A DNA stretch of 60,765 bases, taken from contig CAXTTV010000003.1 in the NCBI GenBank assembly GCA_964247295.1, positions 8,681 to 69,445 of the forward strand. The letters run 5' to 3'. This document shows, piece by piece, positions 24,740 to 27,727 of the stretch. The notes beneath the pieces are model-generated. The model had not been told where the DNA came from, did not search any database, and worked only from the letters and a program-made list of their open reading frames with translations. Numbering within the stretch: the stretch's first letter is position 1; every line of letters begins with the position of its first letter. The DNA comes from an uncultured Ktedonobacteraceae bacterium (GTDB lineage: Bacteria > Chloroflexota > Ktedonobacteria > Ktedonobacterales > Ktedonobacteraceae). A program made the translations under genes and the position numbers.

Positions 24740-25312
24740 CTACATCTCATTGGTTAACAGGATCGCTTCCGCTACTTCCCGCATAGATTTGCGGTTATTC
24801 ATACTGGCCTTCTGGATCTTCCGAAACGCTTCGGCCTCGGATAGGCCCTGTTTTTCCATCAACAGACCCTTGGCCCTCTCTACAACTTTGCGGGTCTCCA
24901 GTTGCTCAGACAGGGTTCTGGCCTTCTCTTCCATCGAGCGAAACTCCGCGTAACGGGCCAGCGCCACTTCGATCGCGGGAGCGACCTCGCTCTCGCGCAA
25001 CGGCTTTACAATGTAGTTGACAACACCAGCCTCTTTCGCGCGTTCCACAAGCTGCTGGTCCCCAAAGGCCGTTAGTAATAGAACGGGAGCGACCTTCTCC
25101 TGCGTTAGAATCTCGGCGGCGGCGATCCCATCGACATCCGGCATCCGAATATCCATAATCACCAGATCGGGGCGCAGCTCTCGTGCCAGATTGACCGCGC
25201 TCTGGCCGTCACCAGCCTCACCAACTACCAGATATCCCTGCTTCGTCAGGATATCGCGCAGATCCATGCGTTGAATCGTCTCATCATCGGCAATAATTAT
25301 CCGTGTTGGCAT
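24740..25312 (-). CDS. ANTAR-domain response regulator (REC + ANTAR; AmiR/NasT/PdtaR-like)
   Basis: REC domain with the acceptor Asp in LVIMDIRMPDVDG. C-terminal ANTAR (VVERAKGLLMEKQGLSEAEAFRKIQKASMNNRKSMREVAEAIL). Confidence 0.9.
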   Translation of the reverse strand: MPTRIIIADDETIQRMDLRDILTKQGYLVVGEAGDGQSAVNLARELRPDLVIMDIRMPDVDGIAAAEILTQEKVAPVLLLTAFGDQQLVERAKEAGVVNYIVKPLRESEVAPAIEVALARYAEFRSMEEKARTLSEQLETRKVVERAKGLLMEKQGLSEAEAFRKIQKASMNNRKSMREVAEAILLTNEM

Positions 25313-25536: not shown

Positions 25537-26595
25537 TTAAGCAACGTAGGTTAATAACCCGGTTTCGCTTAAAACTCTATTCAAGAGAAGAGCTTCATGA
25601 ATAATTACTTCTAGCTGCTGCGGGGTAATTGACTGCCGACCATCGCAGAGCGCATGCTCGGGGTCGATATGCGTCTCTAAAATAATCCCGGCTGCGCCGG
25701 CCACTACCGCTGCTCGCGACATCGCCGGGACCAGTTCCCGCTTCCCCGTGGCATGACTGGGATCTACCACCACGGGCAGATGCGTCAGTCCTTCTAACAA
25801 AGGGATACAGGCAAGATCGAGCATGTTGCGCGTGTGGGGCTCAAAGCTGCGCACACCTCGCTCGCAGAGGATTACATTGGGATTGCCCGTTGCCAGAATG
25901 TATTCCGCAGCCAGCAACCATTCGTCGATCGTTGTAGAGAAGCCACGCTTTAACATAATTGGGCGTTTAAGGCTATTGCGCCCGGCAGCCTTGAGCAGGC
26001 TGAAATTCTGGACATTGCGTGCCCCGATCTGAAGGATATCGGCATACTCGGCTACAACCTCTACCGTCTCTGTATCCAGCACCTCAGTAATCACCGGTAG
26101 ACCAGTAATCTCGCGGGCCTCGGCCAGAATTTTCAGGCCCTCGATTTGTAAACCCTGAAACTGGTAAGGGGAGGTGCGTGGTTTGTACGCGCCACCGCGT
26201 AAAATGTTTGCTCCCGCCTTCTTGACGGCTAGAGCCGTGTCCAGAAGTTGATCTCGGCTCTCAACGGCGCAGGGGCCAGCAATAATTATCGGTTGATCTC
26301 CACCGATCTCAACAACCTGTCGGTCCTCGCCGACAGGTACGATCGTCTTCTGTTTGAATGCTTTGCTCGCCAGCTTATAGGGAGTCGTGATCGGGATAAT
26401 CCGGTTGACCGCCGCCTCGTGGGTCAGCGTCTCAAGGGCCAATGGGGGAAGGGCTTTCCCGTCTAGAACGATCACCTCAGTTTTTTCTAATTGGACAGTA
26501 GTGATCGGCGAGAGGTTCCTGATCATCTTATGAAGAAGCGAGAGTAATTGAGCGCGTTCCTCTGTAGTCGCATCATCTTGTAGTTGAATAATCAT
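25537..26595 (-). CDS. 3-deoxy-7-phosphoheptulonate (DAHP) synthase, type I-beta with N-terminal ferredoxin-like regulatory domain
   Basis: The catalytic core PCAVESRDQ...[16 protein letters not shown] resembles KDO8PS/DAHPS I-beta. The N-terminal extension of about 90 aa resembles the T. maritima regulatory domain. AAGGA RBS 9 nt upstream. Confidence 0.85.
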
Positions 26596-26622
26596 AGCCG
26601 TATCCTTAGTCTTTCAGGTAAA

Positions 26623-26649
26623 CAAAAAAGCAGAGGTAAATTCCTCTGC
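26623..26649 (-). terminator. Intrinsic terminator/attenuator about 27 nt upstream of the DAHP synthase start
   Basis: On the minus strand: GCAGAGG-AAUUUA-CCUCUGC followed by UUUUUUG. Confidence 0.6.
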
Positions 26650-26698
26650 TTGTCCGACATGTAAGTGTTTTTTTTGGCTCAGCACAAAGAACCCACCA

Positions 26699-26761
26699 TC
26701 ATGTCGGAGGGCTAAACCAGTAATAATAGCTAAATTTTATGAAAGTTTGTGTGCTGAGCAT
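26699..26761 (-). CDS. Candidate leader peptide MLSTQTFIKFSYYYWFSPPT rich in aromatic codons
   Basis: Read directly on the minus strand: atg ctc agc aca caa act ttc ata aaa ttt agc tat tat tac tgg ttt agc cct ccg aca tga. Seven of 20 codons are Phe/Tyr/Trp. It sits between the upstream gene and the terminator hairpin in front of DAHP synthase. Confidence 0.45.
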   Translation of the reverse strand: MLSTQTFIKFSYYYWFSPPT

Positions 26762-26887
26762 ACCTGTATCCGTTTTCTTAATAGAATAGCAAGAATCGAA
26801 ACGACAAAGCGGTCGATAGATCCTTATTAGGATTATAAGCGGCCATGCAAATTTCTGTCAAGCTTGATAGGACTGCTTCAAGCCTTT

Positions 26888-27727
26888 TTACTTTTTCTTA
26901 TCGCGTCTCTGGCGCTGGCGATACTCTGTGTAGAGGTTATCATGCTCGCCCGGTACCCCTTCACGCACTGTTGGTGGTATCACCCGTTCGCCTGGTGTTC
27001 CCCGACTTGGGGTTGAGCCGCGCGGCGTCCCTGCTGACGAGAAGGTTCGGGGAATCATATCAAGCCTCGCCAGTACGATCAGCAAAACCACCAGGAAGAC
27101 TAGGTAGATGACCGTTGATAGGCTAATGGGAACCTGTCCCCCGAAAAGATTTAGCGAGACGAGCAGTGGATCGAGATCCTTGGATTTCAGGTACTGTGTC
27201 AGGAAAACCCCAACAAATTGGGCAGCAATCAGATAGATCAACATTCCCAAAATGTATTTAAGTTTGAACGGATTGGCGGGTCGGGCTGGCCGAGCTGAAT
27301 TTGTGCGCGCGGTGGCCGGTTTGCTCTCCAGTTTTTCCTGCTCAACGGGCTGCTTTTTCTCGTTGACTTTTTCCTCAGTACCTTTGCGAGATCGCTCAGC
27401 CCGAGCGAGACGAGCGGCAGCGGCTTTGGAGGAGCGTGCCTCTTCAGATTTCTCACTTTTATCGGCACTAGAAAAAAAGCTCGCTCGCCTCGCGACCCTG
27501 GGTACCACTGGCATAATTGGAATCTGGCCAGTATCTTTACTTTGACCCGTAGTCGTATCAGAGGTCTCGATCACCTCATTCGTAGGTTCCATTTGCTCTG
27601 ATGGCTCTGATGGCGTAGACGCTTCTGCCGCAAGCTCTTTCGCGCTGGTTATCAGGATGGGGCGGTTACGATCTGTTTTTGGGCGTTTGGAAGATGGAGA
27701 TTGCCTGCGGCTATTCTCCTGGGTCAT
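26888..27727 (-). CDS. Hypothetical membrane protein with charged low-complexity cytoplasmic regions
   Basis: Two TM helices and K/E/R/S-rich segments. ATGA start/stop overlap with the upstream GlcG-like gene. Confidence 0.4.
   Translation of the reverse strand: MTQENSRRQSPSSKRPKTDRNRPILITSAKELAAEASTPSEPSEQMEPTNEVIETSDTTTGQSKDTGQIPIMPVVPRVARRASFFSSADKSEKSEEARSSKAAAARLARAERSRKGTEEKVNEKKQPVEQEKLESKPATARTNSARPARPANPFKLKYILGMLIYLIAAQFVGVFLTQYLKSKDLDPLLVSLNLFGGQVPISLSTVIYLVFLVVLLIVLARLDMIPRTFSSAGTPRGSTPSRGTPGERVIPPTVREGVPGEHDNLYTEYRQRQRRDKKK

Follow-up and report, generated by a model that had tools for sequence, protein, structure and literature searches.

What governs expression of the gene for DAHP synthase (DAHPS), the entry enzyme of the shikimate pathway, in an uncultured Ktedonobacteraceae bacterium of the phylum Chloroflexota? 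We address this question for a stretch of 60,765 nucleotides (nt) from contig CAXTTV010000003.1 (assembly GCA_964247295.1, positions 8,681 to 69,445; hereafter the window), in which the minus strand directly upstream of the DAHPS gene carries a short open reading frame (ORF) rich in Phe, Tyr and Trp codons, two inverted-repeat pairs and an intrinsic terminator. An earlier note, made from the letters of the window, had taken this arrangement for an attenuator of the classic design. The core of that proposal stands, and the classic wiring does not. The element is probably a ribosome-dependent leader-peptide transcription attenuator that would tune DAHPS to how much charged Phe-, Tyr- and Trp-tRNA is available, because no other reading covers all of its features together (leader, promoter, terminator, gene context and codon-aware conservation); an antiterminator that shares nucleotides with the 5' arm of the terminator, as the classic design has it, does not exist here.

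An aromatic leader peptide conserved across Chloroflexota classes

The leader ORF that the earlier note described is confirmed by the sequence and by the ORF list. It reads ATG CTC AGC ACA CAA ACT TTC ATA AAA TTT AGC TAT TAT TAC TGG TTT AGC CCT CCG ACA TGA, with seven of its 20 residues aromatic, and seven or more in 20 would be expected with P = 2e-4 at the aromatic background of 6.8% in eight neighbouring ORFs. Both inverted-repeat pairs and the terminator are found where they had been placed (Table 1), and the terminator, which ends 24 nt ahead of the DAHPS AUG, is followed as proposed by an AAGGA ribosome-binding site and a gene whose product matches DAHP_synth_1 (PF00793, E = 6e-80); the N-terminal family DAHP_snth_FXD (PF18152) is recorded in Limnocylindria-type relatives. 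A perfect 12/12 sigma-70-type promoter at 26861-26832, absent from the earlier note, sits between the leader and the upstream gene, whose end is at 26888. The leader AUG lies 70 nt downstream of this promoter, with the transcript predicted to start ~60-65 nt 5' of the AUG.

The closest DAHPS proteins are 61-66% identical to that of the window, and the named ones among them belong to metagenome-assembled genomes (MAGs) of Ktedonobacteraceae. We fetched the DNA around the genes of nine of these proteins and took 80 further loci from a metagenome scan with a DAHPS alignment (all loci are referred to here by L numbers); a single-protein scan of genome contigs gave only Bacteroidota genes with ~35% identity. 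The element is present in every locus with a DAHPS of at least ~59% identity and also in L032, L053, L066 and L099-L101, for a total of 21 distinct loci that include Ktedonobacteria-type members, one intermediate locus and GC-rich Limnocylindria-type Chloroflexota. Judged by these assignments, the family covers at least two Chloroflexota classes. A covariance model (R1), built from 12 window-type sequences, recovers L010, L017 and L021 at E ~1e-13, L032 (leader ...SYFWFWRCPPA) at E = 3e-11, L053 (MTRFYWFTDPA) at E = 6e-7 and L066 (MATSFWYRSPA) at E = 9e-3. Relatives of the L053 protein carry the names Chloroflexota or Candidatus Limnocylindrales, and the L053-related loci L099-L101 have the leaders MSRFFYFLSPA, MNHYFYFYRPA and MSRFYFYRRPA.

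The gene context is far less constant than the element. Two loci, L015 and L016, share the gene order of the window (LplA, HbpS-like, hypothetical, DAHPS, ANTAR response regulator, PSP1 and Band-7 protein); others among the element-bearing loci have unrelated neighbours. Downstream, three contexts are seen: DAHPS alone, a tyrA-DAHPS operon within an aromatic-biosynthesis cluster (L010, L017 and L021) and DAHPS-aroA (L053 and L099-L101). In L010 and L017 the other intergenic regions were searched for aromatic leaders, and none was found. The earlier note had considered that the hairpin might prove to be only the terminator of the gene at 26888; since it lies 3' of the promoter and accompanies the leader in non-syntenic contexts, it is not merely that.

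An aromatic-rich leader is present in all 21 loci, with peptides such as MLSELIKQQNSFYYWFSPPA, MLSKHKNAQFSFYYWFSPPA, MLSYKQPVQQNSFYYWFSPPA, MLSDQRQFTYSYWFSFSPPA, MLSRQTHRQFSYYYSVSPPA, MNTDLRTQLKQTYAYWFYFSPPA, MNIDLQTQPNITFAFYFTWSPPV and similar variants. Changes within the aromatic run are exclusively synonymous (UAU/UAC) or aromatic-to-aromatic (UAU/UUU), with L019 (YYYSV) as the sole exception, and leader codons 4-10 are free to drift between loci. The aromatic residues themselves differ in number, order and identity (FYYWF, YAYWFYF, FFYF, YFYFY), and the leader ends in [S/D/R/C]-P-(P)-[A/T/V]-UGA in 21/21 loci, with UGA always the stop codon. As the earlier note had asked of related genomes, aromatic codons and hairpins are kept in all related loci, with synonymous or compensatory changes. 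This pattern of substitution shows the putative 20-codon leader to be under codon-level selection for aromatic codons.

The promoter is likewise part of the conserved layout. A scan of 18 of the 21 loci places a TTGACN-N16-19-TANNNT promoter 5' of the leader in 17, and the exception, L024, offers only 60 nt of upstream sequence. In every scanned locus with enough upstream sequence the predicted promoter therefore stands ahead of the leader, and not behind it, which would have spoken against attenuation. In six loci (L010 1415-1450, L017 1385-1420, L021, L032, L053 and L066) the -10 box is 7-12 nt from the leader AUG. Here the leader ORF would stand at the 5' end of the transcript, with leaderless or nearly leaderless translation and an AUG fixed relative to the promoter. 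Window-type loci have a 5' untranslated region (UTR) of 48-164 nt with a non-conserved hairpin, and the window-type leader is without a strong Shine-Dalgarno sequence, as might be expected if there were no regulation at all, the ORF having arisen by chance and the hairpin serving only to terminate transcription in the ordinary way or to stabilise a long 5' UTR. We consider this extremely unlikely, given that the ORF, aromatic codons, helices and terminator are kept in 21 loci, two classes and three gene contexts, that the promoter is always 5' of the leader and that the changes are codon-aware and compensatory.

Table 1. Predicted features of the leader region and DAHPS gene in the window
Feature	Position	Strand	Remarks
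Promoter, sigma-70-type TTGACA-18 nt-TATAAT	26832..26861	(-)	12/12 versus consensus
Leader ORF, 20 codons + UGA, MLSTQTFIKFSYYYWFSPPT*	26699..26761	(-)	Sequence reading and ORF list
Aromatic codon run UAU UAU UAC UGG UUU (Y12-F16)	26714..26728	(-)	
Additional leader Phe codons	26743-26741 and 26734-26732	(-)	
Segment A UGCUCAGCACA	26750..26760	(-)	Overlaps start codon, plus codons 2-4; partner is B
Segment B UGUGCUGAGC(C) / UGUGCUGAGCC	26676..26686	(-)	3' partner of A; within C:D loop
Segment C core UCCGACAUG	26708-26700	(-)	Partner is D core
Segment C, full 5' strand of C:D	26689..26708	(-)	Last leader codons, UGA and the GGUGG after it
Segment D core CAUGUCGGA	26661-26653	(-)	Partner is C core
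Segment D, full 3' strand of C:D	26653..26667	(-)	
Segment X UUCUUUGU, pyrimidine stretch	26684..26691	(-)	Begins 8 nt past leader stop
Intrinsic terminator AAGCAGAGG-AAUUUA-CCUCUGCUU then UUUUUUGUUU (U6GUUU)	26620..26651	(-)	9 pairs, 5 G-C
AAGGA Shine-Dalgarno of DAHPS	26607-26603	(-)	
DAHP synthase, 352 aa, AUG at 26595	26595-25537	(-)	PF00793, E = 6.3e-80

Two crossing helices next to an invariant terminator

Folding of the minus-strand leader RNA, one of the checks that the earlier note had suggested, places the 235-nt leader below all 200 shuffles (z = -2.8). The A:B duplex of the window has -20.3 kcal/mol (z = -4.4) and occurs in Ktedonobacteria-type members, where it covaries: L016 carries the compensatory pair GUUCAGC:GCUGAAC, and L010, L017 and L021 have the wholly different yet complementary UUGCGAACCC:GGGUUGCGCAA, to which L017 adds a G-C to A-U change. 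The C:D helix is found in all members, at -19.4 kcal/mol in the window and -27 to -39 elsewhere (z from -3 to -7), with both-side changes at three pairs of the window-type alignment. Its 5' strand consists of the last three or four leader codons and the UGA, and GGUG:CACU is a possible further extension of the helix. C:D, the terminator and a small apical hairpin, P_X, of which X forms part in relatives, are predicted independently by RNAalifold; P_X covaries between loci (GCCC-UUU-GGGC versus GCCU-UUUU-AGGC). In the complete window-type alignment, 99% of the cells take part in pairs and four pairs show double changes; 0 of 500 shuffles attain the observed score, and shifted-register controls reach only 30-52% paired.

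The order of the strands is A-C-B-D, an interleaved arrangement of the pseudoknot type, and the positions show that the predicted A:B and C:D helices cross and cannot easily coexist. The mutual exclusivity claimed in the earlier note is thereby upheld for this pair, while an overlap of either helix with the terminator is found nowhere. Both helices include leader codons that a ribosome would cover. C:D and the terminator abut: in the window the end of D is 1 nt from the extended terminator stem (26651) and 3 nt from its GCAGAGG core, across the 18 loci measured D stops 0-3 nt short of GCAGAGG, and in minimum free energy folds of the minimal Limnocylindria-type elements L099-L101 the two hairpins are flush.

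The terminator stem GCAGAGG/CCUCUGC is identical in 21/21 loci, from AT-rich to GC-rich. Its flanking A-U pair, changed to G-C in L099, is the only part to vary, and the loop differs in sequence with a length of 5-7 nt. Such constancy, while every other helix covaries and the loop varies, could be accounted for if a trans-acting factor (protein or RNA) read the hairpin and decided termination, the leader and C:D/A:B only modulating access or timing; no cis partner accounts for it, and an ANTAR response regulator is encoded directly 3' of DAHPS in the window, L015 and L016. We nevertheless judge this account improbable: no candidate neighbour is present in all contexts, the ANTAR gene being missing in the L010, L012, L013, L018 and L053 types, the 5-7-nt loop is unlike the dual-hexaloop target of ANTAR proteins, and the aromatic codons already serve as a sensor.

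Two further observations concern the fold of the region. In the centroid fold of the window, CAGGUA (26761..26766, ending at the A of the leader AUG) pairs with UACCUG (26612..26617, past the U-tract), a 6-bp pairing not seen in L013, the sole relative checked. L085 (1602-1740), a distant relative that R1 matches at E = 7e-4, keeps the layout with another terminator (AAAGGAGCGGUCCG/CGGACCGCUCCUUU): a leader-embedded helix stops 1-2 nt short of this terminator, and the leader ORF runs nine codons past the helix strand.

How ribosome position may reach the terminator

According to the attenuator model, transcription would begin at the consensus promoter upstream of the leader, and a ribosome stalled at hungry aromatic codons would halt just short of C, allowing C:D to form. 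A ribosome that reads on to Ser-Pro-Pro-X-UGA would cover C and melt C:D, upon which A would pair with B and lock C:D out. C:D would be the read-through (antiterminator) conformation despite having no nucleotide in common with the terminator, an assignment made because a biosynthetic gene must be induced by starvation. Flush with the terminator and anchored to the stalled ribosome, C:D may keep the lower terminator pairs from the RNA-exit channel of the polymerase unless it opens; steric exclusion of this kind is suggested because the 0-3 nt abutment is conserved. With C:D open or replaced by A:B, D would be single-stranded and the terminator could complete. A:B would act as an anti-antiterminator: once the start region is clear of the ribosome and C has been either covered or set free, A:B would form and keep termination in force on leaders that are untranslated or translated to the end. 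The coupling of ribosome position to termination is our inference. For the abutment step, with C:D as the read-through state, we put the chances at somewhat short of even, given an attenuator; this step is a model outside the reach of nearest-neighbour folding.

We probed the switch with two folding tests. In the first, a 28-nt ribosome mask was laid on each codon in turn and the RNA was folded thermodynamically; this test is not diagnostic, since a stability below that of the terminator is normal for classical antiterminators as well. The second was kinetic in style: only the RNA 3' of the ribosome edge was folded, the transcript was cut before the 3' arm of the terminator, and pairing of the 5' arm was read. 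Three leaders of other DAHPS genes (L044, L043 and L072) served as positive controls, and in them pairing of the 5' arm stands at 0.77-0.87 while the ribosome occupies aromatic codons and drops to 0.15-0.3 at the stop. In the window family, ribosomes at the earlier aromatic codons leave the 5' arm 0.2-0.6 paired through weak incidental contacts, and a larger footprint (+16 or +19 nt) leaves the outcome as it is except at the final one or two aromatic codons. The polarity of the window family in this kinetic-style model is the inverse of that in the three control families.

Several results weigh against the attenuator as we have drawn it. Wherever the mask is placed, the terminator pairs with a probability of 1.00 in all sequences. 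In the kinetic-style test, a ribosome on the W/F codons beside C:D lets C:D form and leaves the 5' arm 0.00-0.03 paired, and a ribosome on SPPx or UGA melts C:D and gives a 5' arm that is 0.3-0.8 paired, chiefly with X. No segment freed by a stalled ribosome shares nucleotides with the terminator, and an antiterminator that shares the terminator 5' arm with canonical polarity, a hallmark of the classical attenuator, is missing from the family. No alternative cis partner or factor that would explain the invariance of the terminator stem was identified, and the attenuator model leaves this invariance unexplained. To this are added the want of a good Shine-Dalgarno sequence for the leader in window-type loci and the nature of the data, which are sequences throughout, mostly from MAGs and metagenomes. 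No experimental precedent for the abutment mechanism is known to us.

The contacts between X and the 5' arm raise the alternative of a trp-like wiring with a topological lock. Here X (CCUUUG) would pair with CAGAGG of the 5' arm, and C:D would trap X in its loop; a stall at the last aromatic codons or a Pro-Pro pause would open C:D and free X, and a ribosome on UGA would mask it. In most members at most one other upstream segment complements the 5' arm better than X (-5 to -8 kcal/mol; -7.9 in the window, where X ranks first), and the pairing reaches -14 kcal/mol in the distant L085. As read from the sequences, X lies ~7 nt past the stop in the inspected Ktedonobacteria-type loci and L032, at the edge of a terminating ribosome's footprint, and with footprints of +16 to +19 nt sequestration is 0.3-0.8 at the last one or two aromatic codons versus 0.07-0.45 at the stop. 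The pairing itself, however, is weak (5-8 bp with G-U pairs, closing a loop of ~40 nt), poor in L021 and absent in Limnocylindria-type members with an identical terminator, and a C-G to U-A change that preserves P_X weakens the pairing of X with the 5' arm. Moreover, stalls at most aromatic codons (Y12-Y14, F10) would keep C:D closed and lead to termination. On balance we regard this wiring as unlikely.

That a ribosome on the C-terminal codons is the only state to sequester the terminator arm in the simple model also bears on a different kind of sensor, in which the nascent peptide is arrested at Pro-Pro/UGA (TnaC or RAPP-type) in dependence on free aromatic amino acids or elongation factor P (EF-P) and not on tRNA charging. 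The invariant Pro-(Ala/Thr/Val)-UGA of 21/21 leaders, which follows Ser/Asp/Arg/Cys and often a second Pro, and the constant use of UGA as stop codon would suit such an arrest. The SPPx codons, however, double as the 5' strand of C:D and change in step with D, so that an RNA constraint explains their conservation; the variable number, order and identity of the aromatic residues fits codon counting rather than a tunnel-contact motif, and arrest leading to read-through would induce a biosynthetic gene at amino-acid plenty. This mechanism is very improbable in our view.

Other pairings and signals were tried as the missing link between leader and terminator and were rejected. A (the start-codon region) can pair with the terminator 5' arm over 5-6 bp plus a mismatch, a pairing that the L010 type lacks or has in weaker form and that would have to bridge the stalled ribosome. 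C, mimicking the 3' arm, pairs with the 5' arm at -10.7 kcal/mol in L010, L017 and L032; the transcript, however, offers C a far better partner in D before the 5' arm appears. In the window (-6.2) and the Limnocylindria type this pairing with the 5' arm is weak, and it was not adopted. Pairing of D with the 3' arm, of the A-rich linker with the U-tract and a pseudoknot between the C:D loop and the 5' arm are geometrically or kinetically implausible from helix and linker lengths. A read-through or +1 frameshift ORF across the terminator has an open +1 frame in the window, L012 and L013 and a closed one in L010, and is also ruled out by a register to the terminator that differs between types on inspection. 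T-box-like UGGUGG/CCACCA mimicry is not conserved in the L010 type and has no Rfam match.

It is possible, though rather doubtful, either that the element uses a coupling not described for attenuators, in which an abutting helix blocks termination by exit-channel exclusion or by a ribosome-polymerase clash, or that a novel Chloroflexota factor reads the invariant hairpin.

Relation to known regulatory elements

Leader-peptide attenuators are a known kind of element, with trpL and pheL of Escherichia coli as the archetypes, and the window family is predicted to work like one, albeit without an overlapping antiterminator. At the level of sequence it has a codon-conserved leader ORF, an upstream promoter, a terminator and alternative pairings that would depend on ribosome position. 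As in E. coli trpL/pheL, the leader is rich in regulatory codons, its stop codon lies beside a switching segment and the terminator directly precedes the structural gene, and helix 1:2 there and A:B here may each enforce termination when the leader is not translated. The two designs differ in that the antiterminator 2:3 of E. coli trp/phe shares segment 3 with the terminator, whereas A:B and C:D leave the terminator of the window untouched, and in that the E. coli helices stand in series whereas those of the window are interleaved.

The closest precedent is aroR of Corynebacterium glutamicum, a Phe-Tyr-Phe leader ahead of the aroF (DAHPS) operon at which stalling raises transcription (Neshat et al. 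2014, summarised in PMC11802643). It shows that DAHPS attenuators are not confined to Proteobacteria, the group for which the earlier note had the design mainly documented. The likeness, taken from the description of aroR, lies in a short aromatic leader peptide upstream of a DAHPS operon. The hosts are Actinomycetota in one case and Chloroflexota in the other, and, in contrast to the Phe-Tyr-Phe of aroR, the window leader draws on Phe, Tyr and Trp together, finishes with SPPx-UGA and comes without a terminator-overlapping antiterminator. For Phe or Tyr genes no RNA elements emerged from a 2005 survey of Actinobacteria (PMC1262725), and a survey of premature terminators makes no mention of aro genes or Chloroflexi (PMC2965389). 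Our literature search found no description of a DAHPS leader or leader peptide from Chloroflexota or Ktedonobacteria, and the window family is undescribed in the literature searched.

Nor does the element belong to a catalogued RNA family. Rfam 15 gives no match for the window region at E <= 10 and none at gathering score in 32 related loci, and the amino-acid leader families (Trp_leader, Phe_leader, His_leader, Leu_leader, Thr_leader and others) do not match the window. T-box riboswitches (Firmicutes, some Chloroflexota) resemble it in the kind of gene controlled and in the 5'-leader terminator; the window, however, has a translated ORF, no specifier or T-box sequence and no match to RF00230 even at E = 10. 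ANTAR targets are tandem hexaloop hairpins, the second of which overlaps a terminator, whereas the element has, on inspection, a single hairpin with a loop of 5-7 nt across loci.

Other aromatic leaders precede many more distant DAHPS genes (~47-55% identical) of unrelated uncultured lineages, in an L044/L047/L052/L082/L089/L091 type, an L043 type and an L072/L087 type. These upstream ORFs (uORFs) have 15-30 codons (for example ...NNWYWFYYFYAPVCPMLRRT, ...FCFGWYFYRPRSGAF and ...FGFFGYFYFTEVRSGALT) with a terminator just before the gene, and the 3' ends of the leaders pair directly with the terminator 5' arm, in keeping with canonical attenuator logic. They form at least three structurally distinct families whose sequences are unrelated to the window element and which have no Rfam match. 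Examples within L025-L098 are L044 2285-2500, L043 2326-2500 and L072 587-782, together with L047, L052, L082, L083, L089, L091 and L087.

Neighbouring genes and other elements

Upstream of the promoter, the window encodes a 279-aa ORF (26888..27727, minus strand) without a Pfam family; its counterparts in L015 and L016 have 272-275 aa, occupy the same position and are likewise without a family. The gene directly 3' of DAHPS, after a gap of 224 nt, encodes the ANTAR RNA-binding response regulator (24740..25312, minus strand). In L032, an M-box (Mg2+) riboswitch and a selenocysteine tRNA (426-595 and 1966-2059, both on the minus strand) lie upstream of the DAHPS leader.

Implications for Chloroflexota and uncultured lineages

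To our knowledge, leader-peptide attenuation is known only in Proteobacteria and Actinomycetota. With the element described here, its range would come to include Chloroflexota, in both Ktedonobacteria and Limnocylindria, as well as the enzyme at which the shikimate pathway begins, and the covariance model R1 can be used for annotating MAGs. Aromatic-rich uORFs precede this type of DAHPS in many uncultured lineages, and because they do so with RNA architectures of at least four unrelated kinds, all of them outside Rfam, the regulatory theme appears to be far wider than annotations suggest. With flush but non-overlapping helices, an invariant stem and an inverse polarity in the model, the window family makes a good test case for termination control without strand competition, and these three unexplained features could hide a new principle of coupling.

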